64,000 bases of DNA from a virus (IMGVR_UViG_3300046507_000282:1-64000); one strand, 5' to 3'; positions 87 through 60,981 are shown, numbered from the stretch's first letter. A program made the numbers and translations. The notes: generated by a model not told the origin, from the sequence alone.

Positions 87-314
87 GTGCCAATAACCAC
101 CGATGGGAGCATTTTGAATCTTCACCCCACACCCGAAGAACTGCGCGCCCTTCGCCGGGCCGCAGGCATCAGTCACTCGAAGGCCGCCGCGCTTGTCCAC
201 CTGGGCCACGGTAAGCGCTGGCACGAATACGAGGCTGGGTCTCGCAACATCGATAAGGCCCGTTTCGAGCTATTCCTGATTAAGACGGGCCAGCACCCCA
301 CCATCAAAGCCTAA
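87..314 (+). CDS. Small XRE-family HTH regulator
   Basis: LRALRRAAGISHSKAAALVHL...WHEYEAG matches the XRE HTH pattern. Confidence 0.7.
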   Translation: MPITTDGSILNLHPTPEELRALRRAAGISHSKAAALVHLGHGKRWHEYEAGSRNIDKARFELFLIKTGQHPTIKA

Positions 315-2911
315 ACCTGTTCGAACATGTGGCATGCGTGCGCCGCTGGCATGACGATCACCTGCATTTCGTTGCAGTATTTGCGGTCGAAATCGAAGTG
401 AGCGCACCCGCCGCAGCGCTCCTCTGTGATTTGCTCCTTCTCCTGAATCAGCTTGTTCAGAATCGGGCTCTGCACCTGAGCGCTATCGCTAATCATAACC
501 TTGCCATCCCCTTCGTCAGCATCGGGAAACAGGAACGCCGTACCGCCGTGCGCGCGAGCCCACGCGACGTTCATCAACATGAAGGCGTAGGAGAAGTGGG
601 GGTCGATACCGACCTTCACCACTTTGCGCCGGAATTTCTTCTCTTCCTCGTCTTGCTCAACAATCAGCGCCGTTCGCGTGAAGTGCTTGAACACGCGTTC
701 GAGGATCGGCCCGAGTTGCTTCGTGCCGCGGATGCCGTTGTCTCCGTCGTCCGTCAGTTCCTGCAGCAATCCCTTCGGATCGGGGAACACGCATACGTGC
801 GCCGTGATGCGCGCGAGCGCCACCTGCATGCTCTTGTACTGGTCGAGCGTGACCGTGTAGCGGTCCTGCTCCTCTTCATCCGTCTTGCGCTCTGCCTTCG
901 TCGGCACGGCATCGCCCCAGCGCAGCGAAGCATCCTGGATGGTTGCGTAGCTCGCGAGAAACACGATGCCCTTGTGCCGGTTCGCGAAGCGGTGCGCATC
1001 GTTGTAATTCGGGAGGGTCTCACAGACGCAGACCTTCACGCCGTACTGCACGATCAGTTCCGAGCATCGCGCGAAGGGGTCGTCCGAATAGATTTCCTCT
1101 GCGTGGACGATTGCCATGTGGCCGCTAGCCAGCCGCTCGCAAATGATGATTACGTTGAACTTGCCCATTTGGTCGATACCGGCGAACGTGCCGCGCGCCC
1201 GGTCCTTCCACTCCACGCCGAGCCGCCGCCCCTCTTCCACGCACTCAGCGAGGATTTCAAGGTTGATCGGGATTTGCGTGGGGTCTGCATACGGCTTGCC
1301 GAGCTTCCGGTTATAGAAGTTCCGCATGTCTGCAGCGTTGTGATACGCCTCAATCATTTCGCGGGCGGAAATGGTCGGCGAAAGAGTCTGCGGAAAATGG
1401 ACGGATCGGTTGATGGCGTCCGGATTCTTCGCGATCCACTCGCCGCGCTGCGTGTCGTCAATCCAGCCGTCGCATTCCTTGCACTTGTAGCGATACTCGC
1501 CCGTGAGCCCGGCTTCGCGCTCGCGCTCATTCACGCGCAGCGCAGTCGGATCGTAGCCAATGCACGCCGGGAAGTTTTCATCTAGCACCTGCTTGACGAG
1601 GCAGTGCGGGCACTCCGTATGGAACTGGTATTGCTTCCCCTTTTTGAACCACCAGTGAATGTCGCCGTCGGGAAGGTTCGCGGTCGAGCCCATCAGCGTG
1701 TACTTCATTTTCGACGCCGACATACGCTCGCGGACCTTCTCCATGTCCGCGATCACCATTTCCTGCACTTCGTCAAAGCTAACCACGTCCATCGGATTCG
1801 ATTCCGTGGCCGTCTTGCCCGATGTCCAGAGGAAGTGATACCGCGATTCGCCGATGTTCCGCGTGAGCACGTTGCCGTCGCCGGTAACGCCGGATTCGGC
1901 GAGGCCCTCTTTCATCAGCCGGCGCACGGCGGGGATGGTCCGAACAATCGCCATGAAGCGGTGCGTTGACTTGCCCGCGGCGAGCATTTGCGACGGCATG
2001 AACATGCCGATCTTGGACGACGGGAAGCGCAGACCCAGGTAGATCATGGCGAGCATTTCCATGACCGTGAAACCCACCTGCGTACACTTCATGATGATAT
2101 CGACGCGCTGGTAGGCGTCTTTGACCGTGTGCGGAATCAGGTCGTAAATGAAGTGCATCGCCGGGCGATCATCCAGGCGGAACGGGTAGCCGTCCACGCG
2201 CAGCCCCTCGCGCGACAGGCGCTCACACCACTCGCGAAAGGTTTCGTCCGGGCCGATGATCTGCTGGCCGGGCGTCAGGTCAATCGGCGCATCCACGAAC
2301 TCGCCGAGGCGCTCTTGCCGGAACGTGTCGAGCGACATGTTCGCGCGGTCGAACTCGATAGCCGCGCGGTCGGCGTGTGGGTTACCTTCGCTCTTGAGTT
2401 GGAATGTCTCCCAGTCGCGTCCTGCGCCCCTGTACAGGGCCGCGAACGGCCCGCGCAGGCCCATGGGCTTACCGAAGTACCAAACCCGCCCATGGCGGTT
2501 TAAATGGACGCTCTCATGGAATTCCTGCACCCGGTCGATCTTGTGCGCGTCGTCCACGACGATAAGGTGGAACTCGTCGTAAATCGGTTCGGGCTTGTCG
2601 CGCGGAATGAACTTGATCGAGCCGCCGTTCACCAGGTCCCAGCGCATGTGCTCAGGACGGTTGATAAGCAGCGGGCGGATGACGCGCAGCAGCGCGGCCT
2701 TCATACGCTCCACGTCGTCGTCAGTGGGCACGACGAGCGCCGTCCTGAAGCCGTTGAGCGCGCCGAAGTGGGAAATCAGTAGGGTAACGAGCGCGAGCGT
2801 CGTCTTGCCTGAGTCGTTTCCGCCATGGACCAAGTTAAAGCGCGCAGTGCTGGCAAATGCCTGCGACTGCGCGCCGAAGAGAAGTGGAAGCCTGATTTCG
2901 TGCTGCTGCAC
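311..2911 (-). CDS. terL: Terminase large subunit (GpA-type) with an extra N-terminal terminase-type ATPase domain
   Basis: GpA motifs KCTQVGFT, VVSFDE, GSTA, CPHC/CKEC, FYNRKLGKPY, GIDQ; N-terminal GGNDSGKT / IVVDDAH / NPH...FRQERLGEF. Confidence 0.9.
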   Translation of the reverse strand: MQQHEIRLPLLFGAQSQAFASTARFNLVHGGNDSGKTTLALVTLLISHFGALNGFRTALVVPTDDDVERMKAALLRVIRPLLINRPEHMRWDLVNGGSIKFIPRDKPEPIYDEFHLIVVDDAHKIDRVQEFHESVHLNRHGRVWYFGKPMGLRGPFAALYRGAGRDWETFQLKSEGNPHADRAAIEFDRANMSLDTFRQERLGEFVDAPIDLTPGQQIIGPDETFREWCERLSREGLRVDGYPFRLDDRPAMHFIYDLIPHTVKDAYQRVDIIMKCTQVGFTVMEMLAMIYLGLRFPSSKIGMFMPSQMLAAGKSTHRFMAIVRTIPAVRRLMKEGLAESGVTGDGNVLTRNIGESRYHFLWTSGKTATESNPMDVVSFDEVQEMVIADMEKVRERMSASKMKYTLMGSTANLPDGDIHWWFKKGKQYQFHTECPHCLVKQVLDENFPACIGYDPTALRVNEREREAGLTGEYRYKCKECDGWIDDTQRGEWIAKNPDAINRSVHFPQTLSPTISAREMIEAYHNAADMRNFYNRKLGKPYADPTQIPINLEILAECVEEGRRLGVEWKDRARGTFAGIDQMGKFNVIIICERLASGHMAIVHAEEIYSDDPFARCSELIVQYGVKVCVCETLPNYNDAHRFANRHKGIVFLASYATIQDASLRWGDAVPTKAERKTDEEEQDRYTVTLDQYKSMQVALARITAHVCVFPDPKGLLQELTDDGDNGIRGTKQLGPILERVFKHFTRTALIVEQDEEEKKFRRKVVKVGIDPHFSYAFMLMNVAWARAHGGTAFLFPDADEGDGKVMISDSAQVQSPILNKLIQEKEQITEERCGGCAHFDFDRKYCNEMQVIVMPAAHACHMFEQV

Positions 2912-2966: not shown

Positions 2967-3200
2967 CTAATCGACGTTCTGTTGCGTTTCGTTGACCCAT
3001 GCGGATTCGGTCGCAACCAGCCATGCGGTTCCGACTTCGACGTACGTGTAGGTTTTGACACGGACGATAGCGCCCTGCTCGATGCACGTATCGGTCAGGC
3101 GATTGCCGTTCGTGTCGTAGGTGTATGCATGCGGCAGGGCGGCCGGCTCGAACGGCTTGCCCAGGTTGTCCTTGACGACGACGCGCATCGGTGCGGCCAT
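2967..3200 (-). CDS. Small late protein with one YD-repeat-like motif
   Basis: YTYDTNGNRLTDT; AAGGAA RBS; late motif upstream. Confidence 0.65.
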   Translation of the reverse strand: MAAPMRVVVKDNLGKPFEPAALPHAYTYDTNGNRLTDTCIEQGAIVRVKTYTYVEVGTAWLVATESAWVNETQQNVD

Positions 3201-3236
3201 GGCTATTCCTTTTGGAAGTGGTGTATGGATGCCATG

Positions 3237-3251
3237 ATCGTCACGTCACGA
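3237..3251 (-). promoter_or_regulatory. Putative late promoter TCGTGACGTGACGAT
   Basis: Matches late motif consensus. Confidence 0.6.
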
Positions 3252-3259
3252 ACGCAATA

Positions 3260-3285
3260 GAAAAAGCCCGCGCGAGGCGGGCTTT
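3260..3285. terminator. Rho-independent terminator
   Basis: aaaaagcccgcgcgaggcgggcttt hairpin with flanking A/T runs. Confidence 0.75.
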
Positions 3286-3311
3286 ATTGGGCTGAAAGTA
3301 GCGTTGCTGGG

Positions 3312-3662
3312 TCAGTTCATTGCGTGGGCGATTATTCCGTTCGCCACTTGCTCTGCGCACTTGTCCATGTCTACCTTTTCGCCGACCGTGGCAGCCGCCG
3401 ACAACTGGCAGATTTTCCTGGCCTGAGCGACGATCTGCGCCTTGGCGTCGTCCATTTGCGCAACTGCTTGCGCGGGATGCGGATCGCTAGACAGCGGGCG
3501 ATTCTGTTCATGTCCGTAGACAAGAATGTCAGTGTCAACCGTAGAGGCTTGCGACTGCGCCACGGCATCCGGCGAGTACGTTGCTCGCTCGGCTCGCTGC
3601 GCACCATACGCTAGGGCGAAAACAGCCAAGGCGGCGATTGATACGGCGATTGCTTTTTTCAT
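3312..3662 (-). CDS. Exported hypothetical protein
   Basis: N-terminal signal/TM MKKAIAVSIAALAVFALAYG. Confidence 0.7.
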   Translation of the reverse strand: MKKAIAVSIAALAVFALAYGAQRAERATYSPDAVAQSQASTVDTDILVYGHEQNRPLSSDPHPAQAVAQMDDAKAQIVAQARKICQLSAAATVGEKVDMDKCAEQVANGIIAHAMN

Positions 3663-3835
3663 GACTGGGGTCCCTCGCTGGTTTTAGTGCGAGCATTGTA
3701 TTTTGCTCGAAAAGCGGGCGCAAGATAATCGTTGCACCGTCAATTTCTTTGTGCCGAGCAGATATGTCAATAAAAAAGGGGCGGCTTTGGGGCCGCCCCA
3801 AACACACGCGCTAGACGGGGGACCGCCCGCGCCCT

Positions 3836-4018
3836 TTACAACGCTGTCAGTTTGATGGAGCGATTCAGTTCCTGCAGGTATTGCAGGATCGGGACCGCTT
3901 CATATTTCGGCTTCGGGGCGGACACCGCGCGTTCGTTGAACGTCTCACAGATGACGCGCCCCGTCTCTTTCTCGCGGATGACCCATGAGGCCGTCCGCGA
4001 CAGGCTTTGCGTGAACAT
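3836..4018 (-). CDS. Hypothetical phage protein
   Basis: Coupled ORF in operon, ASWVIREKETG. Confidence 0.6.
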   Translation of the reverse strand: MFTQSLSRTASWVIREKETGRVICETFNERAVSAPKPKYEAVPILQYLQELNRSIKLTAL

Positions 4019-6209: not shown

Positions 6210-6779
6210 TTACAGGGGCCGCAGGATGGTCCCGAACTGGCGGAAGTGCTCGGCGAACCGGCCAACGTCGCTATTCGTCGTGAAGTAGAGAAACGCCTGC
6301 CCGCGCGTGTTGGCGCGCTCGGCTTTGCCGTCCGTGTTGTAGAACTGGATGCGATGGTCAGTGAAGCAGATCGCGGATGCCTGAGCGGACAGTGCGCGGA
6401 ACATGCGGGTTTCCGTGGCGTTGTTCACCAGGACGATGCCGCGCTTGAACCGCTCGTAATCGAAGGCTTCCAGAAAGCGCGTGGCCGCATCGAGCGCAGG
6501 AGCGCCGGAATACGGCGGGTTCATCCAGCAGGAACCCACCTTCGGCCACGACACGCCGCGCGTCGGGTTCGGGTTGTCGAGCGTGCAGTACACGTCGGCG
6601 CACACGATCTGCTGCGCGTCGTCGCTGCTGTACGGGTCGAATCCGATTCCGCCGAGCACGGCGCGGGCCGCCTCGATGTACTTTGGCGGCGTGAACCACG
6701 CATCGGAATCGAGCCTCTTCGCGCCCGGCGAGCTACCCACGTAGCCGAGCGCGGCAGGGTTATCGGCGCGGCGCATCAT
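6210..6779 (-). CDS. Phage DNA N6-adenine methyltransferase (phage Dam family)
   Basis: DAWFTP, FDPYSS, WMNPPYS motifs. Confidence 0.88.
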   Translation of the reverse strand: MMRRADNPAALGYVGSSPGAKRLDSDAWFTPPKYIEAARAVLGGIGFDPYSSDDAQQIVCADVYCTLDNPNPTRGVSWPKVGSCWMNPPYSGAPALDAATRFLEAFDYERFKRGIVLVNNATETRMFRALSAQASAICFTDHRIQFYNTDGKAERANTRGQAFLYFTTNSDVGRFAEHFRQFGTILRPL

Positions 6780-8320
6780 TTGAGTTTCATCAGGTCGGCG
6801 CGGCGGGCGATCAGCTTGCGGGCCAGCTCCGCCTTCTGTTCGGGGTTGCCGGGCCCGAAGTCCATGACGAGCGACTTGATCTTGTCAGGGCTCACGCTCG
6901 CGACCTTGTTGACGCCGTTCAGCAGTTCCTTGTGCGTGATGCCGCCAAAGACGCTCGATGCCTGTGGATTCGTGCCGTCCGTCAGGGTGTCCAGTTCGCC
7001 CACCTTGTCGCCGAAGTGCTTGCCCTTGGGCTCGCCCTGCGCTCGAAACACCAGCGATCCGCCCACGTCCACGCGCACCGCGTTGCCGTCCCTGTCCTGC
7101 AGCAGGTTGTCATGCGCCAGCCCCACCACGTCCCAATTGGCGAGCCATGCATCCACGGCGAAGCCGTCCATGACGCTCTCGTTGCCCTCACCGAAGTCTT
7201 CGAGCTTGTCGAGCCCCGGGACGATCTTCGACGCGATGGCGGTTTTGTCGCCGACCGTGACTTCCTTCAGTTCCGGCACCTTCACGCCGGCCGCCTCGTA
7301 GAGCTTCCCAGCGAGAATCTCGTTGCGCGCGATGGCGGTTGACTTCGGGACTTTCACGTACCAGTCATGACCTTGCGGGTCTTTGAAAAAGCCGCCCGGG
7401 TTCGAGCCGAGTTGCTTGCCCGTCTTTTTCCAGTCGTCCACCGACTCGCGCAGCGGGCCGCTCGGCGTCAGGCCAGCCAGATCGGCAAGCGTGCGGTCGT
7501 ACTGGCGGTTCGCTGCGGCGTGGACCTTCCCGGGCGGCACCAGCATGACGGCCTGCGTCTCCCATCCGCAATCCGTCGGCGAGCCGCCCACGCGCCGCGC
7601 GCTGTAGTAGCGCGTCATGGTCTGGCCGCGTTCCACGTCGCCGACGAGCCCGGTAATCTCCACCTGAAGCCCGGACTCCTCAAACGCCTCTTTGATGGCC
7701 GTCGCCTGCAGATTGATGCCGTCGTCAGCGTGGCCCTTCGGGAACGTCGTGGCGTAGCCTGCAAAGCCGTTGGACGGCTTTACCATCCACACGCGGCCAT
7801 CGGGCTCGGTAATGAGCACGCCAGCGGCGGGCTCTTTGCCCTTCAGGTCCATTTCCGGTTCTTCGAGATCGGGCATTTGCCCTTCGACGTGCTCCCAGCC
7901 CTCGATGGTTTTCGGATGGCCGGTCCACGGCGCGAGAGCGACGCCATTCAGCTTCGCGGGGGCGTGGCCGCCCGGCGTGAAGGTCGCCGTCACCTGCGGA
8001 TCGTTCCAGGTGGACGTGTCGGATTGCTGCGAGGGGTATTTGACGACTACGTGCTTGCCGTCGTCGTCGCGCTTCGGATGGTTGATCGCGCCGGGCGGCA
8101 TGGCCCATGCGGGGTGCAGCGCATCCTTACCTTTCGGCTTGGACGCGAGCTTCTCGGCGGAATGCGTGGCGTTGCCGTGCAGCGAGTTGGTCCACTTTTT
8201 GGGCTGCGCTGCCTTGACGGCCTTTACCTGCTTGACTGCGCTGGTGTCGTATTCCTTGACGACCGTGCCATCGCGCTTCGTGTACTGCTTGACGTGGGCT
8301 TTGCTGAAGAGGAGGAGCAT
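6776..8320 (-). CDS. Polyvalent protein: N-terminal tag + Nudix hydrolase + HipA/PI3K-like kinase
   Basis: Nudix box FPKGHADDGINLQATAIKEAFEESG; kinase GSNPGG, WYVK, NE, DAWLANWD...DN, RVDVGG. Confidence 0.85.
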   Translation of the reverse strand: MLLLFSKAHVKQYTKRDGTVVKEYDTSAVKQVKAVKAAQPKKWTNSLHGNATHSAEKLASKPKGKDALHPAWAMPPGAINHPKRDDDGKHVVVKYPSQQSDTSTWNDPQVTATFTPGGHAPAKLNGVALAPWTGHPKTIEGWEHVEGQMPDLEEPEMDLKGKEPAAGVLITEPDGRVWMVKPSNGFAGYATTFPKGHADDGINLQATAIKEAFEESGLQVEITGLVGDVERGQTMTRYYSARRVGGSPTDCGWETQAVMLVPPGKVHAAANRQYDRTLADLAGLTPSGPLRESVDDWKKTGKQLGSNPGGFFKDPQGHDWYVKVPKSTAIARNEILAGKLYEAAGVKVPELKEVTVGDKTAIASKIVPGLDKLEDFGEGNESVMDGFAVDAWLANWDVVGLAHDNLLQDRDGNAVRVDVGGSLVFRAQGEPKGKHFGDKVGELDTLTDGTNPQASSVFGGITHKELLNGVNKVASVSPDKIKSLVMDFGPGNPEQKAELARKLIARRADLMKLK

Positions 8321-8347
8321 CGTGACGCCTTATGACTGGTTTAACCC

Positions 8348-8362
8348 AGTCTGGCGTCACGA
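8348..8362 (-). promoter_or_regulatory. Putative late promoter TCGTGACGCCAGACT in an RBS-occluding hairpin (8319-8363)
   Basis: Motif plus 11-bp inverted repeat ATCGTGACGCC/GGCGTCACGAT covering RBS and start. Confidence 0.7.
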
Positions 8363-8369
8363 TCACCCC

Positions 8370-8843
8370 TTAATACTTGACGCCCAGCAGGCGCTTCGTC
8401 ACGTCATCCATCATGTCGTCCATGGTGGCCTTGATTTCCGCTTCCGGCGTGCCATCGTTCATTTCCTGCGTCAGCGTCATGGTCTGCGCCGCCACCCACA
8501 TGAAGAACCCCGTACCGGGGTCGCCAAAGGCGATAGTTTCTTCCGGAACCAGCACGCGCATGACGTTGCCGAGCCGGTTCGGCGTATTCCACGGCTGTGC
8601 ATCAAAGCGCTCGTCATGGCCTTGGAAAATATCACTGAGCAGCTTAGCCTCTGCAGTGATCGCCGGGAGCGGGTCGCGGTCGCCCTTCCCTGCGCGGAAG
8701 TCGGAGTATGCACCGATGCAGAACTTGGCGAAGTTGCGTACCAGCCACGAGACCGTGTGCAGATCGCCCAGCGACGGCTTCCCAGTCGCCACCAGGTCGT
8801 CCAGATAAAGCCCCGTCGGGGGCAGTTGCTTGGCTTCGCTCAT
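8370..8843 (-). CDS. Hypothetical acidic protein coupled to the large polyvalent protein
   Basis: ATGA overlap with 8840 stop; helical and acidic. Confidence 0.75.
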   Translation of the reverse strand: MSEAKQLPPTGLYLDDLVATGKPSLGDLHTVSWLVRNFAKFCIGAYSDFRAGKGDRDPLPAITAEAKLLSDIFQGHDERFDAQPWNTPNRLGNVMRVLVPEETIAFGDPGTGFFMWVAAQTMTLTQEMNDGTPEAEIKATMDDMMDDVTKRLLGVKY

Positions 8844-11800
8844 TTATTCACCTTCGTAAGATTGTCAACGTAAGTCGGGTCAGGCGGCAGCATCAGAACT
8901 TCCAGTTCAAGACGCGGGGCTTTTTTGGACGACCCATGCTCAACGTCGGCGACCATTTTACGCGAAAGGACCATGAACCGCGCGCCGGGCAGCGTCGTGA
9001 TTTCCGCCTCTCCTGAGAAGCCGCCAGAACCGAATGTATCGGTCGCCGCGGCACCCTCTGCATAGTGGATCACAACACGATGCTTGCCAAACCCGCTCGT
9101 CGCCGTATCGTGCTGCGACGTACACATGGAACCCGGGTTCTGGAAAACCAGGCCCTCGGGGTTATCAAGGAACTGACTCACCATTTCATCGGACATTTCA
9201 ATCCACTTATTGATCGTCGTGCCCTCCTTGTGAGAGACAGCCGTTTTGTACAGGTCATCGAGAACCGTACGCGTTTTCTGGCCTTGGTTATCGGTTTCCT
9301 TGCCGTCGCGATACGGCTGGTTGTTCGAGCCAGAACCCTGCACCGCCTTAATGAACGTCGTAACGGTTTCTGGCAGCTTCTTAAACGCGTCGTAGGCCGC
9401 CTTCTTTGCCGCCTCTGTGAGCTTCACGCCTACGGTCTTCGGCCTGAACTTCTCAGGCGAATCCGCAACGCCCAGCGCGATCCAGAATCCCAGGCGCTCG
9501 CTTGCCTTCACGTCGGCAATCGAAACTCCATAGTCGTGCGGCTTGAACAGCGCAGACAGGGACGCCAGCGTGCTCGCCTTCTTAGCCGTGAAGTTGCGCA
9601 TCGGCTCGGGCGGGTTTGCAACCGTGTCCAGGTACGACACGACAGAGTCGTAATACTGCTTCACGTGATTCGAGCCGTGCTCACCAATCGGCTTCTTATC
9701 GCCAACAGCCTCGCCGGTCAACTTGTCAACCGGCTGAAACTGGTATTTCTTCAGCGCGATCAGGTCGCCCTTCAGCGCGAAGTCAAGGATGTCTTGCTCG
9801 GCCTTGATGTTGTGCTGTACGTACGGCTTGTCAGAGATCGGCTTGCCAGAGCCGCCCCAGTTCATGAAGTCGTGCATCGGCGGTACGAGCGCCGGGTTGA
9901 TTTTCAGGTTGCGCGGGTCCGGTTTCGCCTTATCGCCCTGCGCGCCAGCTTCCTTCTTTGCCTTGGCGGTCGGATACTGCTCGCTCATGTTGTGCTTGCG
10001 TGCGATCAACTTCGCGGCGAGGCGCGTCTTCTCGCTCGCCGAGCCCGGCCCGAACTCCATTACCAAGCCTTCGATTTCATGGTCAGGAATGTTGGCGATC
10101 TTTGCGACGGAGGCCGTGATGTCCGCGGCGCTCATTTTCCCGAACACAGCAGCCGTGTTGGCGTTCTTCGCCGGGTCCAGCATCGTCTTGAGGTCGGTTA
10201 CCTCGTTCTCGAAAGTCTGCTTCTTACCGCCTGCGCCGCCGTACAGCAGAGCGCCGCCCGCATCGATGCGCACAGCCGATCCATCGGGCTTGAAGAGGAT
10301 GTTGTCGAACCCCTTCCCGGCAGCCGGGTTGTTGCCCACCGTGTCCCAGTTCGCCAGCCATGCGTCGGCAGCGAAGCCAGACAGCAGGCCCGGCGCTTTT
10401 CCTTCGAGCAACGCGGACTTGTTCGCCACCGCGCCATCGATGATCTTCGACGCTAGCCCGATCTTGCCGCCCTGGTTGACGAGCTTGACTTCCGGAACTT
10501 CGACGCCAGCCAGCGCATACAGTTTCGTCGCAAGAAGTTCGTTTTTCACGATCTTCTCGCCGCCAGCCGGGAACTTGACGTACCACTTCTGGCCGCTCGC
10601 GTCCTCGAACGTGCCGCCCGGGTTGTAGCCTCCCTGCGGACCTACCTGCTTCCATCCATCCACGGATTCGGTTTCGGTCTTCGTCGTGCCCACCACCTTT
10701 GACGCGGCCTTCTTCGGTGCGGTAGCGGCAGCAGCCTCGCCGGCTCCTGTTGTGCCCGCCATAGCAGCCTTCAGAGCGAGCGCGTAGGCCGCCAGCGCCT
10801 TGCCGTTTTCGCTGGCATTGCCCGGCGCACCCTCTTTCCAGATTCCCCACTTGCCATCGTCCCCAGCGTCGATCATGACCTTGTGGCCGTTCGGCTTGCT
10901 GTCATAGATCGCCTTGTCGAGCCCAGCATCGCCATCCTTCAGGGCGATGGCTTGAAGCGCCTTGACCGTCTTGTTCATCTTGACGGAATTTTTGCCCTCA
11001 AACTTCGGCTTTGCTACCGACGCCACCTTCTTTACGAGTTCCTTTGGATCAGTGGCCTTCGGCTCGTCGCCACCCTGCTTGTGCCAGCGCCCATCCTTGA
11101 ACACCAGCATGCCGTCGGCACCCTGCTTCGTGTCGCCTTCCTTGGGGCCGCTATCGGCAGCGCCTGGCTGCTTCTCTGCCCACTCGGCGAGCGCGGAAGC
11201 ATATTGCTCCTCGGCGTCCTGCTGCGTCCCGGCGTCCACCTTGGCGAAGTTCTTCAGCTTCTCGATACCCTCTGCACCCTGCGTCGTCGCCCACTTCTTC
11301 AGGGTTTTGGCGGTCCCTTCATCGACGCCAGCCGACGGCTCAGGCATAACGCTCTGATCGGCTGAACCGATATGCTTCGCCTCTTCGCCCAGCGACGCGA
11401 GCGCATCCTTGGCGTATGCGGCGATCTTCTTATCATCCAGGTTGTTACCGGCGTAATCGAACGCACTGTAATAGTCCTGAAGGTTGCTCACTTGGCCGCC
11501 AACATGGCCGACGGCGCTACCCTTCGTAGTCAGGTCATGAATGGCCTTGGCGGCGTCTTTGTGAAGGTCACTCATGTCTGCGGTATCGAGGACCGGAAGC
11601 GACGGCGCAGAATCTGCGGTCATCTTCGTCGCGAGTTCGCCGATCTTCTTCGCGGCGTGCTCGGCGGTCTTCTGCATGCCGTTCTTCGCGGCGTAGGCTG
11701 CAATGTCCTTCAGCGTCTGCATGTCGCCCTTCTCGGCGGCAGCGTTGATGTCATCGAACAGGCCGCCAGTCGGCTCGGCGGCAGGCTTCGCGCCCATCGC

Positions 11801-13483
11801 GATCAGCACATTGCCGATCCAATCTTTGACTTCCGGAATGATTCCGTCTACCGCTTGCAGTTTCTTCAGGGCATCCGCATCGCCGTTGGCAGCATGCTTT
11901 GCAACAGAGTCCCATGTCTTCGGACCCATGCCATCCGGATGCGCGAGCAACGCGTCGGAAACAGCCTTCGGAAGTTCCGTGTCGGGAGCGGGAATGTCGG
12001 CTGGCGCGGACTCCATCGCGGGCTCATTGCCTTTGGCGTGCGCGAGCGCGGCATCGTAGAACGCCATCAGCGTCTTCGAGTTCGCCGTCTTGCCCTTCCA
12101 CGTGTTGCCGACCTTGCCGTTCTTCGGCGTCAGGCCGTCAGCCTTCATGTCTTCGAGCACCTGCACGTTTCCGGCTTCGGCGTGCTCTTTGATCTTCTTC
12201 GCGACTTTCGCGTAGTGCTCGGCATACTTGGTTTCGCCATCCTTGCTCGGGGCGAATTCGGGCACAGAGAGGCCGCCAGCGGTCGCTGCAGCGGCTTGCT
12301 CGCCTTGCTTGACCCAATGGCCGTCTTTGAGCACCAGCGTGCCGTCAGCGCCTTCCTTGGTATCGCCCTCTTTCGTGCCTTCGTCGGCAGCAGCGACCTT
12401 CGACGCGGCCAGCTTCTTCGACTCGGCCGCCAAGTGAGCGGTCGTAGCTTCAGACGGCTTTGCTGGGTTGAGCCACGACGGAGTCGGCTTCGCATCGGGC
12501 GCGGCGGCAGCGGGCTCCTGTTTCTTCTCACCTTCGTCCTTCAGCGCTGCATGCTCGCCCATCTTTTGGCCGGGCGCGACCGTGTGCTTCGAGCCCATCG
12601 CGGCGAGCGCCTCGTTGGCGAGCTTTGCAGCCTGCTTGCCGTACGTGTGCGACTGATAGCCGTGATTCAGGATGTCTTTCGGGTTGTCCGTCACCAGCGC
12701 GTGCGCAATCGCGTCCAGCTTCTTCTTCATGCCGGGCGTGATGTGATGGTCGGACGGCAGCTTCGCCTTGGCGGCTTCGATCTTATCGAGCACCGCGGCC
12801 TTCGCGTCGTTCTCAGCGCCGAGCTTCGCGCCCGTGGGCGGCTCTGACTTCGGTTCCGGCTTGGGCTCGGGTTTGGGTTCCGGCTTCGATTCTGGCTTGG
12901 GCTCAGGAGCGGGTGCAGCGGGCTTCGCTTCCTCTTTGGCCGCAACCACCTTCGGCGCTTCCTTTGGAGCCTCCTGCGCGGCTTCTGGCTCATCCTTGGG
13001 CGCACTCGCCTTCCATTGTTGGAAGCCCTCTGCGAACTCGTGCCACTTCCCGGCCTGCTTGAATGCCTCGCCAAACTCTTCCTGCTTCGCGCCGGGCAGC
13101 GAATGAAACGCCTTCCACTCGGCATTAATCGGCTTCTCGCCGGCAAGAATCTTTTTCTTCAGCGCGTTGGCGCGCGAGAGCATCGATGCCTTGTGTTGGA
13201 TCGCGGTCGCCTCTTTCAGGACGTGCGCCACCTTATGGTCGTGAGGCATCGCATTGAACCAGTCCTTTTTGGACAGCTTCTTATGCGCTTCCTTCTCGGT
13301 GTAGTTGCCTTGACCGGCGACAGCCTTGTGCTCGTCGTGGTCGGTCGAAACGTTGACCCAGTGCATGTGCCCGGCGACGGGCGTGCCATCGCGCTTGGTG
13401 TAGCCCGGAATCCACACCTGTTTCTTCGTCACCGCTTTCATGAAAAGCAGCAAAGGTGCGTACGGGCGAATGTCGTCGTTCAT
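8840..13483 (-). CDS. Large polyvalent (probably virion-internal) protein: tag + Ala/Lys-rich region + HipA/PI3K-like kinase + C-terminal ADP-ribosyltransferase-like domain
   Basis: Kinase GGYNPGG, WYVK, NE, DAWLANWD...DN, RIDAGG; ART-like GSMCTS and GEAEITTLPGARF; start set at ATG 13483 behind a GGGG RBS. Confidence 0.8.
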   Translation of the reverse strand: MNDDIRPYAPLLLFMKAVTKKQVWIPGYTKRDGTPVAGHMHWVNVSTDHDEHKAVAGQGNYTEKEAHKKLSKKDWFNAMPHDHKVAHVLKEATAIQHKASMLSRANALKKKILAGEKPINAEWKAFHSLPGAKQEEFGEAFKQAGKWHEFAEGFQQWKASAPKDEPEAAQEAPKEAPKVVAAKEEAKPAAPAPEPKPESKPEPKPEPKPEPKSEPPTGAKLGAENDAKAAVLDKIEAAKAKLPSDHHITPGMKKKLDAIAHALVTDNPKDILNHGYQSHTYGKQAAKLANEALAAMGSKHTVAPGQKMGEHAALKDEGEKKQEPAAAAPDAKPTPSWLNPAKPSEATTAHLAAESKKLAASKVAAADEGTKEGDTKEGADGTLVLKDGHWVKQGEQAAAATAGGLSVPEFAPSKDGETKYAEHYAKVAKKIKEHAEAGNVQVLEDMKADGLTPKNGKVGNTWKGKTANSKTLMAFYDAALAHAKGNEPAMESAPADIPAPDTELPKAVSDALLAHPDGMGPKTWDSVAKHAANGDADALKKLQAVDGIIPEVKDWIGNVLIAMGAKPAAEPTGGLFDDINAAAEKGDMQTLKDIAAYAAKNGMQKTAEHAAKKIGELATKMTADSAPSLPVLDTADMSDLHKDAAKAIHDLTTKGSAVGHVGGQVSNLQDYYSAFDYAGNNLDDKKIAAYAKDALASLGEEAKHIGSADQSVMPEPSAGVDEGTAKTLKKWATTQGAEGIEKLKNFAKVDAGTQQDAEEQYASALAEWAEKQPGAADSGPKEGDTKQGADGMLVFKDGRWHKQGGDEPKATDPKELVKKVASVAKPKFEGKNSVKMNKTVKALQAIALKDGDAGLDKAIYDSKPNGHKVMIDAGDDGKWGIWKEGAPGNASENGKALAAYALALKAAMAGTTGAGEAAAATAPKKAASKVVGTTKTETESVDGWKQVGPQGGYNPGGTFEDASGQKWYVKFPAGGEKIVKNELLATKLYALAGVEVPEVKLVNQGGKIGLASKIIDGAVANKSALLEGKAPGLLSGFAADAWLANWDTVGNNPAAGKGFDNILFKPDGSAVRIDAGGALLYGGAGGKKQTFENEVTDLKTMLDPAKNANTAAVFGKMSAADITASVAKIANIPDHEIEGLVMEFGPGSASEKTRLAAKLIARKHNMSEQYPTAKAKKEAGAQGDKAKPDPRNLKINPALVPPMHDFMNWGGSGKPISDKPYVQHNIKAEQDILDFALKGDLIALKKYQFQPVDKLTGEAVGDKKPIGEHGSNHVKQYYDSVVSYLDTVANPPEPMRNFTAKKASTLASLSALFKPHDYGVSIADVKASERLGFWIALGVADSPEKFRPKTVGVKLTEAAKKAAYDAFKKLPETVTTFIKAVQGSGSNNQPYRDGKETDNQGQKTRTVLDDLYKTAVSHKEGTTINKWIEMSDEMVSQFLDNPEGLVFQNPGSMCTSQHDTATSGFGKHRVVIHYAEGAAATDTFGSGGFSGEAEITTLPGARFMVLSRKMVADVEHGSSKKAPRLELEVLMLPPDPTYVDNLTKVNK

Positions 13484-13506: not shown

Positions 13507-13521
13507 AGCTTGGCGTCACGA
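13507..13521 (-). promoter_or_regulatory. Putative late promoter TCGTGACGCCAAGCT
   Basis: Motif; downstream TACCCC/GGGGTA hairpin covers the RBS. Confidence 0.7.
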
Positions 13522-13539
13522 TCACACGGTTCAGAAACG

Positions 13540-13560
13540 AAAAAACCGCCCGAAGGCGGC
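13540..13560 (-). terminator. Rho-independent terminator
   Basis: ccgcccgaaggcgg hairpin with T-run on the minus strand. Confidence 0.65.
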
Positions 13561-13564
13561 ATTC

Positions 13565-15691
13565 TCAGTTGTAGTAGAGCGGCACTAACGCCATAGCGTC
13601 AGTCACCACATACCCGGTCGTGCCCGTGTTGCTCACGACGACCTTGTTATTTGCCGGATCGTTGGCCGTGAACGCATACGTGCCGAGCAACTTCCATGCG
13701 CCAGAAGTCGTGTTCAGTTCGTTGACGTTGATCGCCGCCTGCACTGCGCCAGCAGCCGTTACCGTGTGCGGCACCGAACCCGACCGCGTCCCGGTCGCAC
13801 CTTCCGGATAGAACACGTATGCGCTATACGTCCCGGCCTTTGGCAGGTTGAACTGGAATTCAACCGAGCACGAACCCTTGTTGGTCGATCCATCGCTCAG
13901 ATAGGTCGGGCCGAAAATGGATGCCTCGCTGAAGGTGCTAAGGGTCTGTAGTTCCTGCCACGCTCCCGCCACAACAATCTGACCGCTCCCATTAGGATCG
14001 GCGTACGTTCCAGCCGCGTTACTGCCCGGCTGAATATCGAGAACGACTGCGCCAGAAGGGTAATAGCCCATCGCTTCCTTGATCTTGTACGGGTCAACGG
14101 CTTGCACCGTCGCGCCCGTGTCGATTGCGCGGGCCGCAGCATAACCGGCTGCCTCGCCGAGTTGCATGGAGATTGGCTCAACACGAATCGATGCAAACGC
14201 CGCGTGTGACGCCGACACTGCGAAAGTGACCAGGAGGTTCGTGCATTCGGCAATTTTCGGGCAGAGCGCCTTGTAGCTGATCCAGTAGCGTCCATCAGCG
14301 CCGCCGCTCGCCGTCTTTTGAAAGAAGCCGCCTTCGAGCGCGACGAAGCCGTCATAAACGACCGTCTGGCAGTGGTGCGAGTCCATCGCGTAGAAGCCGA
14401 CTGCCACGCCATCGTTGACCGGCGCGATGCGCTGGCAGTGCTGGTCAGTCATAACGAAGTCGCCGACCATGCGCCTTCCCTCGCGTACGTAAAGCTGGCC
14501 CGGCAGGCCGCGCCGCGTCGGAATCTGCGAATATGGCGGCAGACCGAACCCGGCCAGCGTCGTCTTGATTCCAGCCGGCACGCGCGAATCTTCGCGAAGG
14601 AACTTGAACAGCCCCAGCGCCCAATCGACGTGCTGCTGATAGATGACGGCGCGCTGCGCATACGTCGCATTCGGCCATGCATCAGCGCCGCCAATGAAGT
14701 CGAGTTGCTGAAGCGCAGAGCCTGCATTCAGATCGGTCACGCCATCTTTGCAAAGGTGATCGTTGAACAGGCCGGGCGGGCTCGCGTTGTCACTCCATGC
14801 CGTGATTTGACCAGCAGCGAACTGACGACCGAGGATCTCGTAATTGAGCGGGTTGTAATTCGTCGGCTCGGGAAAGCGACGGTATGTGCCGGGGCCGCCA
14901 CTCGTTGACACGACATTCACACGGAACCCGTACGCCTGCACACGACTATCGCCCGTGCCCACGGCGGCGACTGTCGAATTCACGCCATGCAGCAATCCGG
15001 ATGCCGGCACGCCCGGCGTAACGTATGGGTCAATCTGCCATGCGCCCGCCTTGTTGTACGGCGTTACGACCCCGTTGTACGTCTCGCCGTACTGCGAATT
15101 AGCCTCACGCCCTACCGCGAACGAACACCCTGCGGCGGCCATCAAATCGCCTTCGTAGGTCGCGTCGATATAGACCGATGCGGTAACCGATAGCTGCGGC
15201 GCAGTCAGCGGCGTCAGCGCGTCTTCGAAGGTCACTGAGTCGATCTTCGTGCCCGACTTCTTTACGGCGGTCGCCACCACGCGATAGTTATTCCGCACCG
15301 CGATACGGATCGATGCGAGCATTGCCGTCAGTTGCGCGATTGTCGCTTTCGGCGAGCCGTTTAGGCTTTGCCCCCAAAAGGTCGGATAGTCCGTTGCATT
15401 CGCCGTGTAGTTCGCGCTCCAGATAGCGCGATAGAGGGTGTTGGCAAGCCCCTTCAAAACGTTGCAGTCACCGCCAGCGCGGTCGGTGTAACTAAGGCCG
15501 CCCTGCGCTGGCATGCCGCCGAATACGGCGTCAGGGTTGATTAGCTCAACCGACTTGCCATTCTGCGCGGCAGAGATCGCCGCCATGATGCCGCTAGCCG
15601 TCGCGCCATAGACACACACGTCCACGTTACGCGTTGCATAGAGGGCGTCCGCTTTGCTTTTGCTTACGCCGGGCGCGTCAAGAAATCCCAT
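13565..15691 (-). CDS. FAD-dependent oxidoreductase (FAD_oxidored-type) with C-terminal golvesin/xanthan-lyase-like beta-sandwich
   Basis: VDVCVYGATASG, IDATYEGDL, LYVREGRR, MDSHH, SASHAAFASIRVEP; C-terminal W..LGTY.F...V.DA. Confidence 0.85.
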   Translation of the reverse strand: MGFLDAPGVSKSKADALYATRNVDVCVYGATASGIMAAISAAQNGKSVELINPDAVFGGMPAQGGLSYTDRAGGDCNVLKGLANTLYRAIWSANYTANATDYPTFWGQSLNGSPKATIAQLTAMLASIRIAVRNNYRVVATAVKKSGTKIDSVTFEDALTPLTAPQLSVTASVYIDATYEGDLMAAAGCSFAVGREANSQYGETYNGVVTPYNKAGAWQIDPYVTPGVPASGLLHGVNSTVAAVGTGDSRVQAYGFRVNVVSTSGGPGTYRRFPEPTNYNPLNYEILGRQFAAGQITAWSDNASPPGLFNDHLCKDGVTDLNAGSALQQLDFIGGADAWPNATYAQRAVIYQQHVDWALGLFKFLREDSRVPAGIKTTLAGFGLPPYSQIPTRRGLPGQLYVREGRRMVGDFVMTDQHCQRIAPVNDGVAVGFYAMDSHHCQTVVYDGFVALEGGFFQKTASGGADGRYWISYKALCPKIAECTNLLVTFAVSASHAAFASIRVEPISMQLGEAAGYAAARAIDTGATVQAVDPYKIKEAMGYYPSGAVVLDIQPGSNAAGTYADPNGSGQIVVAGAWQELQTLSTFSEASIFGPTYLSDGSTNKGSCSVEFQFNLPKAGTYSAYVFYPEGATGTRSGSVPHTVTAAGAVQAAINVNELNTTSGAWKLLGTYAFTANDPANNKVVVSNTGTTGYVVTDAMALVPLYYN

Positions 15692-15700
15692 TGTTTTGCC

Positions 15701-16072
15701 TTACGTGATGGTGATAGCGGGTTGCGCCGTGACTGCGCCGTTGGCGTCGCGCGTGACTGCCGCCTGCGTGACGGTCTTTACGGTCGAGCCGTTGATGTAG
15801 GTCGCATGCCAAGCGTCGATTGCGCCAGGGAAAGCAGCGCTAGCAATGTCGGTAGTGAACTCGCCGGTCGAGCCATCCGGCCACACGATGCTTGCGGTGA
15901 CAATCGCGCCATTCGCGTCGCGCACGGCTTCAGTGGCGGCGAACGCCTGCGCATATGCCCATGCCAACAGCCCCGCGCTGGTCAATTGCTGCATCTTCGC
16001 AAGCGCCTGTTGCGCCTGATTCGCAGCCATGAACGCCTGCGCCAGCGAACTCTGGCTAATGTCCACAGTCAT
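15701..16072 (-). CDS. Putative virion/adaptor protein
   Basis: Two RDANGA motifs, WPDG; first gene behind a late motif. Confidence 0.65.
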   Translation of the reverse strand: MTVDISQSSLAQAFMAANQAQQALAKMQQLTSAGLLAWAYAQAFAATEAVRDANGAIVTASIVWPDGSTGEFTTDIASAAFPGAIDAWHATYINGSTVKTVTQAAVTRDANGAVTAQPAITIT

Positions 16073-16099: not shown

Positions 16100-16114
16100 A
16101 GGGTCGCGTCACGA
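16100..16114 (-). promoter_or_regulatory. Putative late promoter TCGTGACGCGACCCT
   Basis: Motif; CCCTTC/GAAGGG hairpin covers the RBS. Confidence 0.65.
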
Positions 16115-18711: not shown

Positions 18712-19407
18712 TTAAGGGAACAGCTTCTTCAGGTTCTTCATGGTCAGCTTGCCCGTCTTGTAGCAGCCCGTATCCACGTAATACGTGTTTCCAAGGCTCG
18801 TCACTCGTTCGACGGGGGTATGACCTACGACTACCGCGTGGACGCCGCCAATGAGGCTGTCATCGAGCCGGTCGATCCTTCCGCGCGACCATATGGCCGT
18901 ATTGCGGATGGCCTGCGCCTGCATCGGCGGATATTTGTCGGCAAGCTCGGGCAATTGGGACTGGCGGAACGTGTCCCAGTGATCGAACGGGCACTGTGCA
19001 TGCACGATGCCAACCGTACGACCGCCGCCAATCTCTACCTCGATGGCGAGCGGCATGTTCAGCATCGCGTCAGCAAGAGCGACGCGCTCGGGATTCGTCT
19101 TGCCGACCATCCACGCGCCACCGATCCCGACGTACCAGTTCACATCGCGCAACGCGCCCATGGCGTACATGATCCCGGCGTCCTCATGGTTCCCCATGAC
19201 GGATACGAACCACGGCTCATCTAGCAGCTTCAGCGCACCCTCTGAGTCGCTGCCACGGTCAACCAGGTCGCCGGTTGCAAAGATGCGATCAACCGACGGG
19301 TCGAAGCGCTTTTCGTCCATCTTTGCGTGCAGAGCGTCAACGCATCCGTGCAAATCGCCAATGACGAAGTCGCGCCCGCGCGTGTTTTCAGGGTAGACAG
19401 GGATCAT
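18712..19407 (-). CDS. Ser/Thr protein phosphatase (NinI/PphA-like metallophosphoesterase)
   Basis: GDLHG, GDLVDRG, GNHE, GHT, DTG motifs. Confidence 0.93.
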   Translation of the reverse strand: MIPVYPENTRGRDFVIGDLHGCVDALHAKMDEKRFDPSVDRIFATGDLVDRGSDSEGALKLLDEPWFVSVMGNHEDAGIMYAMGALRDVNWYVGIGGAWMVGKTNPERVALADAMLNMPLAIEVEIGGGRTVGIVHAQCPFDHWDTFRQSQLPELADKYPPMQAQAIRNTAIWSRGRIDRLDDSLIGGVHAVVVGHTPVERVTSLGNTYYVDTGCYKTGKLTMKNLKKLFP

Positions 19408-60966: not shown

Positions 60967-60981
60967 ATGTTGGCGTCACGA
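60967..60981 (-). promoter_or_regulatory. Putative late promoter TCGTGACGCCAACAT (lysis operon)
   Basis: Motif; AAATCCAATGAG/CTCATTGGATTT hairpin next to the start codon. Confidence 0.7.

Follow-up and report, generated by a model that had tools for sequence, protein, structure and literature searches.

Polyvalent proteins with ADP-ribosyltransferases (ARTs) and a kinase family have been predicted to be packaged and injected by Iyer et al. (2017; PMC5512222). For myoviruses, head-packaged ARTs, Nudix enzymes and polyvalent proteins were predicted in that article and in a 2022 survey on nicotinamide adenine dinucleotide (NAD) and ADP-ribose (PMC9503650), and Nudix enzymes and ARTs were reported to be often virion-associated. 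It is established knowledge, summarized in the same survey, that Alt of phage T4 is a late product, is carried in the particle and acts at entry. The kinases T7 Gp0.7 and JSS1_004 phosphorylate many host proteins and inactivate several defence systems (PMC13645617, PMC12345140). Here, a module of three genes is described that is encoded in the viral record IMGVR_UViG_3300046507_000282. The window, i.e., the whole stretch of DNA that was analysed, comprises 64,000 nucleotides (nt) and represents the first 64 kb of a 93,887-bp record, which has direct terminal repeats and is rated complete. The module encodes a big protein with a kinase-like domain and an ART domain, a small partner protein, and a Nudix protein with a second kinase-like domain. 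It is fairly probable that these are late genes for enzymes that are loaded into the virion and enter the next host along with the DNA.

The big protein resembles polyvalent proteins, as they are described in PMC5512222 and PMC9503650, in that it is a large multidomain protein that combines an ART with other effector enzymes, carries variable cargo and is encoded in a neighbourhood of packaging genes. Polyvalent proteins have at least two unrelated effector domains in architectures that are shuffled among homologues. Accordingly, the big protein combines the kinase-like domain, the adjacent domain MidX and the ART, and its homologues add ART-PolyVal, Zeta_toxin, NUDIX, Acb1 and WGR. The ART belongs to the Vip2/C3-type R-S-E fold class, as does T4 Alt. 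In contrast to the single-domain Alt with its canonical Arg, however, the ART is here the last of several domains and has a Lys at this position. Capsid targeting and proteolytic processing are features of Alt, while they are putative for the N-terminal tag of the module proteins. The module has the following components:

8840-13483, minus strand: gene for the big protein (polyvalent effector), 1547 amino acids (aa) from the ATG at 13483
13367-13453, minus strand: N-terminal tag of the big protein (LLLFMKA...GYTKRDGTPVAGH)
10694-13360, minus strand: low-complexity Ala/Lys/Glu/Pro-rich linker of the big protein, delimited by composition
9956-10693, minus strand: protein-kinase-like domain of the big protein, CtkA/HipA/PI4KII-like clade
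9461-9955, minus strand: MidX, a conserved and mostly helical domain of about 165 aa between kinase and ART
8843-9460, minus strand: ART domain of the C3/Vip2/Alt type, with Lys 1440, SMCTS to Ser 1470 and Glu 1506-x-Glu 1508
8370-8843, minus strand: gene for the small partner, 157 aa
6776-8320, minus strand: Nudix-kinase gene, 514 aa
8249-8320, minus strand: N-terminal tag of the Nudix protein, residues 2-24

It was verified by open reading frame (ORF) analysis and translation that all three genes claimed in a preliminary description of this DNA are indeed present on the minus strand. The longest ORF of the big gene starts with the GTG at 13525 and encodes 1561 aa, and the residue numbering of the big protein refers to this form. 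The ATG at 13483 was selected as the start because of a late promoter-like motif and a GGGG ribosome-binding site. From this start the domain order is N-terminal tag, long Ala/Lys/Glu/Pro-rich linker, kinase-like domain, MidX and ART. The ATG of the small gene lies on the TGA of the big gene, and this ATGA overlap revealed that the proposed coupling of the two genes is translational. The linker is about 900 residues long and contains two WGR-like hairpins (GDTKxGADGxLVxKDGxWxKQG), which start at residues 387 and 797. A Pfam search with the linker yielded no match, while homologues do match Pfam WGR, and a self-comparison of the big protein did not reveal any long internal repeats.

A paralogous domain is common to both large proteins, with an identity of 44% over 229 aa (E 1e-45), and every motif that the preliminary description had quoted for this shared kinase domain was present. 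The big protein has the Gly-rich loop at residue 966, the beta3 Lys 984, the alphaC Glu 996, Asp 1061, Asn 1075 and Asp 1088. The kinase-like domain of the Nudix protein (residues 292-510) has Lys 323, Glu 334, Asp 397, Asn 405 and Asp 418, and both copies retain all catalytic-type residues (Lys, Glu, Asp, Asn, Asp). In an alignment of 27 family members DAWLxNxD, the Asn of the DN motif, RxDxGG and one further Lys were invariant, and the alphaC-type Glu was nearly so; in domain numbering, these include the invariant D117, N131 and D144 and the nearly invariant E52. The lysine of WYxK was nearly invariant in a second family alignment.

The structure of the domain was modelled with AlphaFold2 from the family alignment, and the model had a predicted local distance difference test (pLDDT) value of 92.8. 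A Foldseek search with this model yielded CtkA of Helicobacter pylori as the first hit (E 6e-8), followed by HipA and actin-fragmin kinase. CtkA (PDB 3akj/3akk/3akl) was also the best structural match in a search with VIA, which is independent of Foldseek (Z 15.8, 207 aa, root mean square deviation (rmsd) 3.2, 20% identity), which further retrieved CotH (Z 13.9), PI4KII-alpha (12.8), MavQ (12.7), HipA (11.8; others 10.5-11.0) and actin-fragmin kinase (10.3). The neighbours in the language-model Atlas were HipA_2, PI3_PI4_kinase and LepB_N clusters. The kinase-like fold of the HipA/PI3-4K-like clade, which had been proposed from motifs, was thus upheld by two structure searches with the predicted model. 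The conserved residues map to the Gly-rich loop, beta3, helix C, the catalytic loop and the DFG-equivalent position in the secondary structure of the model, whereby the roles of the residues were set by motif and position, without superposed coordinates. Because these are the active-site positions of kinases, the modelled domain looks catalytically competent.

The domain is hardly accessible to sequence-based searches. The Pfam model HipA_C matched the kinase domain alone with 19.2 bits and thus below the gathering threshold of 30.5, similar sub-threshold matches were found for 10 of the 27 family members, and no domain model for it is contained in Pfam, PHROG or NCBIfam. Its similarity to CtkA was undetectable by sequence or profile. 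The kinase and ART part of the big protein, used as a single sequence, retrieved nothing meaningful from the PDB sequences. A family profile retrieved ARTs from the PDB but no kinase, and therefore the kinase assignment rests on the predicted fold. When 1.84 billion cluster representatives were searched with the domain (9956-10693), 4278 proteins were found at E<=1e-3, including 668 at E<=1e-30. Nearly all of these relatives have lengths of 1000-7000 aa, and some contain two to five copies of the domain. The pairing of kinase and ART recurs in unrelated architectures, e.g., MuF-kinase-kinase-ART in the homologue P0124, and Phage_Mu_F was present in 3 of the 27 family members.

In a maximum-likelihood tree the Nudix-linked kinases of this lineage formed a clade of their own (100/100), and they were separated from the kinases that these phages have in their big proteins (100/99). 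Therefore, the second kinase copy is an old, separately maintained paralogue, and its separate clade rules out a recent duplication as its source.

The described kinases differ from the phage domain in several respects. CtkA is a stand-alone secreted protein that was reported to act on human cells, whereas the phage domain is embedded in phage proteins. CtkA is encoded on tfs4, an integrative and conjugative element and thus a mobile element (PMC7366825), and it may derive from a pool of mobile-element effectors. HipA-family toxin kinases belong to the same atypical kinase clade, but the phage proteins are devoid of the HipA N-terminal domain, of a HipB-type antitoxin and of a toxin-antitoxin context. 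The kinase of Iyer et al. (PMC5512222) has no C-terminal lobe, contains a His...Asp pair and is known chiefly from Verrucomicrobia, Chlamydiae and Bacteroidetes. The phage domain, in contrast, has a helical C-lobe with NWD...DN...RxDxGG and is similar to CtkA, HipA and PI4KII; neither HipA nor CtkA is mentioned in that article. T7 Gp0.7 and JSS1_004 are the best functional precedent for the module kinases. However, they belong to another kinase family, are expressed early after injection and have no link to an ART or Nudix enzyme, while the module is putatively pre-packaged.

The last 371 residues of the big protein, which comprise MidX and the ART, were modelled with a pLDDT of 92.3. A VIA structure search with MidX yielded only weak generic helical matches (Z<=6). 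MidX accompanies the ART in nearly all related loci. The preliminary description had proposed a C-terminal ART-like domain, and an ART fold was found by three approaches. A family profile that included the C-terminal part matched Vip2 in the PDB with an E value of 3.3e-7, in addition to Vis, Lmo0066, CdtA, Tre1, SpvB and iota toxin, and in the profile alignment the family motifs YRW, SMC[CT]S and ExE were positioned over the R, STS and ExE motifs of the Vip2 type. The Foldseek search with the ART model retrieved CDTa, Vip2 and C3bot (E ~1e-7). VIA aligned residues 166-358 of the model with C3bot2 (Z 13.4, 174 aa, rmsd 3.0), CPILE-a (13.0) and Vip2 (12.6), and also with Certhrax. A Pfam search with the big protein gave no ART match at E<=0.1, not even to ADPrib_exo_Tox (PF03496).

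The motifs GSMCTS, GEAE and TINKW, which had been quoted for the ART, were all present, and TINKW aligned with YRW of Vip2. Both Glu residues of ExE (GEAEI in the big protein) were conserved in all 106 homologues. The last Ser of the STS-like motif M-C-T-S was found in 105 of the 106, and at its first position the same number had Cys instead of Ser. The first catalytic position was occupied by Lys in 59 and by Arg in 47 of the 106 homologues, and by nothing else, with Lys in this phage and its nearest relatives. The replacement of Arg by Lys that had been noted before is therefore real, but it is not a defect of this one gene. As ExE is invariant and solely Lys or Arg occurs at the first position, the pattern of the site looks like purifying selection and not like decay. 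To our knowledge, no R-S-E ART of the Lys type has been characterized. The ART has the fold, an STS-like motif and ExE in common with C3, Vip2, iota, CDTa and Certhrax as well as with Tre1, at identities of about 12-16%. It differs from the toxins of the C3/Vip2 type by the Lys/Arg alternation, by its phage context with a putative location in the virion, and by the absence of a B-component or secretion domain.

The second large protein contains, as had been proposed, a Nudix domain (residues 163-274), which matched Pfam NUDIX (PF00293) with an E value of 3.9e-13 and 50 bits, clearly above the gathering score of 21.1. NCBIfam searches with the module proteins gave weak Nudix matches only. The solved structures that were nearest to the domain by sequence were hydrolases of the Ap4A/Ap6A type (E 1.7e-5). 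In 57 homologues G196, E211, E214, E215 and G217 of the Nudix box were invariant, and E211, E214 and E215 are metal-binding. The box departs from the consensus GX5EX7REUXEEXGU at two positions, because the first Glu is replaced by Ile, Leu or Met (Ile in this phage) and the Arg is replaced by Lys in 51 of the 57. The box had been called intact; this holds for the metal ligands, but not for the first Glu and the Arg, whose replacement is a conserved variation. Ahead of the Nudix fold there is a strongly conserved extension (residues of about 80-160; 7841-8083, minus strand) with the consensus HP...G..V....PS..S...TW..P.A.ATF.PGG..P..LNGV....W.D.P.T.EGW..V.G.

The small partner matched nothing in Pfam, PHROG, NCBIfam or a PDB profile search, and it had no Atlas feature match. 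Its Atlas neighbours were unrelated proteins with low template modelling scores, and the model itself was poor (pLDDT 0.58). Weak but significant similarities were found to gp130 of phage fHe-Yen8-01 (E 4e-6) and to ST4_108 (E 4e-12). In 66 of 68 loci an iterative search revealed a homologue whose gene immediately follows the ART gene. The complex of the small protein with the MidX-ART block was predicted with a score of 0.52 (runs 0.00, 0.52 and 0.72), while the best control had a score of 0.00. In a benchmark 58 of 80 solved complexes came up to the mark, as did 2 of 110 mismatched pairs, and passing scores of <=0.60 were found for only 7 of the 80 solved complexes, plus both passing mismatches. 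The runs agreed in at least 0% of the contacts, and the pLDDT of the partner was at least 68. As a working hypothesis, the small protein might bind to the ART block as a subunit, or might serve it as chaperone, adaptor or inhibitor. It shows no similarity to the ARH-type immunity proteins of Tre1 and Lmo0066.

Both large genes are preceded by a late promoter-like motif, as the preliminary description had stated, and the placement of the motif upstream of ORFs throughout the genome verified that it is real. Ten copies of TCGTGACGC[CG]A were found in the 93.9-kb genome, always on the minus strand and always 21-56 nt upstream of an ORF start. The ORFs behind it include those for the portal, a tape-measure-like protein, a virion structural protein and the large terminase (TerL) as well as both large module genes. 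A 15-nt form of the motif had four matches in the window compared to 0.26 expected by chance, and its versions ahead of the two large module genes are identical. The positions are as follows:

13511-13521, minus strand: late promoter-like motif TCGTGACGCCA, 38 nt upstream of the ATG of the big gene and directly after the terminator
8352-8362, minus strand: second late promoter-like motif of the module, 42 nt upstream of the Nudix-kinase gene
2953-2963, 8352-8362, 13511-13521, 16104-16114, 41690-41700 and 60971-60981, minus strand: all copies of the late-type motif in the window
13545-13560, minus strand: intrinsic terminator-like hairpin, GCCGCCTTCGGGCGGT followed by TTTTTT, which ends the upstream gene for a flavin adenine dinucleotide (FAD)-dependent oxidoreductase

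The two large proteins also share an N-terminal tag, which consists of a hydrophobic-LLxKA segment followed by a GYxRxDGxxVxxH hairpin and which is carried by no other protein of the genome. Its family-wide form is hydrophobic-LLxK[AS] and then a GYxRxDGxxVxxH or GYxLxxGRWHK hairpin. In the related loci 31 of 40 big proteins have a tag of this type, as have 46 of 51 Nudix proteins, compared to 26 of 1235 other ORFs, and it is also present in module proteins of cultured phages. It may act as a signal for incorporation into the virion or for processing, with the former role being preferred here. In four loci (L025, L027, L033 and L035) a Nudix-kinase is fused ahead of MidX-ART, and an N-terminus with ...RWPxGSxKGGQFAPK... 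replaces the usual tag; these big proteins begin at about 3000-3900 in each locus.

More than 100 clusters of homologues of the big protein were retrieved, which have lengths of 1000-2000 aa and are encoded on contigs of about 85-95 kb. On the protein level the module is present in the cultured myoviruses of about 90 kb Aeromonas ST4, Pseudomonas Dolphis, Jeremy and Touem01, Escherichia ECML-606-1, Enterobacter phiT5282EW, Yersinia fHe-Yen8-01 and Morganella Mecenats66, and P. putida is among their host species. The order of big, approximately 160-aa and Nudix protein is the same in Dolphis (gp117-119), ST4 (ST4_109-107), ECML-606-1 (genes 47-45) and fHe-Yen8-01 (genes 129-131). The carrier of the module described here is a tailed phage of about 94 kb, a myovirus similar to Mecenats66, Dolphis and fHe-Yen8-01. 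In the cultured relatives the proteins are annotated as "ADP-ribosyltransferase", "NUDIX hydrolase", "nucleotide phosphatase" or hypothetical, and the module genes are not discussed in the Mecenats66 paper. A megablast search of the region against 50,697 phage records yielded no match, and the relatives emerged at the protein level only.

The gene neighbourhoods were analysed in 68 IMG/VR loci, and the order big-small-Nudix was found in 57 of them. A separate Nudix gene is located downstream in 50 loci, and a separate Nudix-kinase fusion, as in this phage, is present in 7. In 5 further loci the big protein itself begins with a fused Nudix domain, followed by a kinase, and a Nudix gene of its own was not seen. 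No Nudix was seen in the remaining 6, of which at least 2 are cut by the contig end. The fusion in 5 loci thus represents a Rosetta-stone link between the Nudix and the big protein. The kinase-MidX-ART block is constant across the loci, and the region ahead of it varies. The cargo of this variable region in homologues comprises ART-PolyVal/ADPrib_exo_Tox, Zeta_toxin with NUDIX, NUDIX with Acb1, and WGR. Three metagenomic homologues (P0105, P0110 and P0069) have NUDIX with Acb1, which counteracts CBASS (anti-CBASS; E 5e-38), Zeta_toxin with NUDIX, or a canonical ART-PolyVal/ADPrib_exo_Tox beside the C-terminal ART. In at least 35 loci the module is located just upstream of the TerL gene.

One indication for virion loading came from phage fHe-Yen8-01, because its genes 129, 130 and 131 are all labelled "particle associated protein" in the database record. 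Gene 129 encodes a 2146-aa "ADP-ribosyltransferase toxin" that matches the kinase-ART part of the big protein, and residues 7-280 of the Nudix protein are 41% identical to gp131 (E 1e-70). The idea of the preliminary description that the effectors are co-packaged and act at entry fits with these labels, with the shared late motif, with the MuF fusions and with the Acb1 and zeta-toxin cargo. The shared N-terminal tag and the location of the module just upstream of the TerL gene also count in favour of virion loading. The cargo, with Acb1 and toxin-type domains at the variable position, points to functions in defence and takeover.

The present analysis demonstrated the folds and the conservation of the catalytic residues, the synteny, and the tag and promoter-like motif that the large proteins and their genes have in common, while the virion association of the orthologues was taken from the database record. 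That the proteins of this phage are packaged, ejected and enzymatically active, on which substrates they act and what the small protein does is inferred, and the following sequence of events is proposed. The enzymes of the module would be made late, and the tag would direct their incorporation into the particle. The small protein would probably ride along bound to the kinase-MidX-ART block as a chaperone, an adaptor or a restraining inhibitor. Once ejected, the kinases would transfer phosphate and the ART ADP-ribose to host targets, and the Nudix enzyme would hydrolyse a nucleoside diphosphate linked to another moiety, e.g., ADP-ribose or a signal derived from NAD, a dinucleoside polyphosphate, or a cap. 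The joint outcome would be takeover of the host or blunted defences ahead of any phage gene expression. A relation of writer and processor between the ART and the Nudix enzyme is pure conjecture. A phosphatase encoded at 18712 had been suggested as an eraser, but a homologue of this NinI-like phosphatase was located within 7 kb of the module in just 6 of the 68 related loci, and the idea of a dedicated phosphatase eraser was dropped.

Several points weigh against the proposed delivery of active enzymes with the virion. The "particle associated" labels are GenBank annotations of orthologues, for which the underlying data were not found in the papers that were searched. A Pfam search did not reveal MuF, portal or any other recognized head-targeting domain in the big protein, and late expression fits a function in the producing cell as well. 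The ART has a Lys where all characterized R-S-E enzymes have an Arg, and the Nudix box is devoid of the first Glu and the Arg, so that each of the two could have a reduced or altered activity. A transfer of phosphate to proteins does not follow from a kinase fold, and the lipid kinases PI4KII and MavQ are among the close structural neighbours. The predicted contact of the small protein with the ART block has weak support, and the runs disagree.

As an alternative, the enzymes might work late in the producing cell, either in a modification of host or phage proteins during morphogenesis or in superinfection exclusion, and their presence in the particle would be incidental. The two large genes lie behind a late-type motif among morphogenesis genes, and therefore the enzymes would be produced at a time when the infected cell is already lost. 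Benler et al. (PMC8008677) read a HipA-family kinase that is encoded between the portal and capsid genes of the "Gratiaviridae" as acting in the producing cell, and the lack of a recognized head-targeting domain in the big protein would be in line with such a role. However, all three fHe-Yen8-01 orthologues are labelled as particle-associated, the kinase domain recurs in fusions to MuF, which is a head component, and a specific conserved N-terminal tag on both proteins is hard to reconcile with soluble late enzymes. In addition, the cargo of homologues includes Acb1, which is of use only early in infection. A role confined to the producing cell is thus regarded as quite improbable. It is even harder to believe that the big protein has a mainly structural role, as an internal or ejection protein, and that the catalytic domains, or at least the Lys-type ART and the variant Nudix domain, are decayed pseudo-enzymes that are kept for binding. 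The Lys in place of the catalytic Arg, the two missing hallmark residues of the Nudix box, the low-complexity linker that makes up about 900 residues of the big protein, and the missing Pfam ART match could all be read in this way. Yet ExE is conserved in 106 of 106 homologues and the STS serine in 105, the first ART position is restricted to Lys and Arg, all five catalytic residues of the kinase are invariant or nearly so, and the metal-binding Glu residues of the Nudix box are invariant, and a decay of the enzymes is accordingly considered very improbable.

Another explanation concerns the substrate of the kinase-like domains and would be compatible with virion delivery. They might act on a small molecule or a lipid, in one pathway with the Nudix enzyme, e.g., on nucleotide or NAD immune signals or on envelope precursors. 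This is suggested by PI4KII-alpha and MavQ, which were found at nearly equal Z values (12.8 and 12.7), by the PI3_PI4_kinase and LepB_N clusters among the Atlas neighbours, and by one multi-kinase homologue that matches Pfam APH. The repeated fusion of Nudix and kinase, as a separate protein in 7 loci and at the N-terminus of the big protein in 5, and the old clade of the Nudix-linked kinases (100/100) also speak for a common pathway. In contrast, the Ser/Thr protein kinase CtkA was the best match by about two Z units and the HipA toxins follow, and the kinase of the big protein is always situated directly before an ART of a protein-modifying type. A small molecule or lipid as substrate seems unlikely. 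Loading of the module enzymes into the virion and their delivery into the next host remained the preferred reading.

The module is surrounded by further genes. Upstream, a FAD-dependent oxidoreductase and the NinI-like phosphatase are encoded, and downstream there is a Dam-type methyltransferase and, further off, the TerL. The oxidoreductase gene (13565-15691, minus strand) adjoins the module and matched PF12831 (E 1e-76) and Golvesin_C (E 4e-16). No homologue of it was found in any of the 68 related loci, and therefore it looks like a lineage-specific acquisition. A small gene next to it (15701-16072) lies behind the late-type motif at about 16104-16114. The large terminase (311-2911, minus strand) matched two terminase PHROGs in tandem, phrog_2 with residues 11-220 and phrog_675 with residues 222-790. 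The closest named relatives of the big and the small protein were P0014 and P0249 (NCBI, Paraburkholderia sediminicola, 92,553-bp contig) and P0253 (Paraburkholderia elongata), and for these Paraburkholderia relatives the identity was 91% for the kinase domain and 60% for the small protein. Their occurrence in Paraburkholderia assemblies and the G+C content of the genome of about 60% suggest a host from the Burkholderiaceae.

The module had been put forward as an undescribed system. This went too far, since the module is present and partly annotated in cultured phages, and packaged ART, Nudix and polyvalent effectors have been described computationally (PMC9503650, PMC5512222), so that the concept of packaged effectors is known. 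The kinase-MidX-ART block, the universal small partner and the shared tag are not described in PMC9503650 or PMC5512222, as far as their available parts are concerned. What appears to be new is the size and the identity of the CtkA-like family, which is not represented in Pfam, PHROGs or NCBIfam. The constant association of this family with MidX and an ART of the Lys/Arg type, the universal small partner, the shared tag and the Nudix-kinase fusions also appear to be new. Standard annotation would miss most of the module, because Pfam yields only NUDIX and a sub-threshold HipA_C match, while PHROGs and NCBIfam yield nothing useful.

It is tempting to speculate beyond the module itself, although the following extension is tentative and we regard it with clear doubt. 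The CtkA-like domain could define an unnamed and very large family (at least 4278 clusters at 50% identity) of kinases that are delivered by phages and are habitually paired with ARTs. In this myovirus lineage it would form, together with the small subunit and the Nudix enzyme, a pre-packaged "first-strike" cassette that inactivates several defences, or NAD and nucleotide immune signalling, within seconds of injection and ahead of phage gene expression. The two kinase paralogues, which separated long ago, would differ in their targets, and the ART of the Lys type would differ from Arg-type enzymes in chemistry or substrate.

If it is true that a kinase is pre-loaded in the particle together with an ART and a Nudix enzyme, it would act earlier than an early-expressed kinase of the T7 type. 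The alternation of Lys and Arg at the first catalytic position represents a natural experiment on the chemistry of ARTs. The predictions for the module are open to bench work, because its carriers include cultured phages of E. coli, P. putida, Yersinia, Aeromonas and Morganella. Naming and testing the kinase family would annotate much of the viral "dark matter", as it has no domain model and yet thousands of relatives in the giant proteins of phages and mobile elements.

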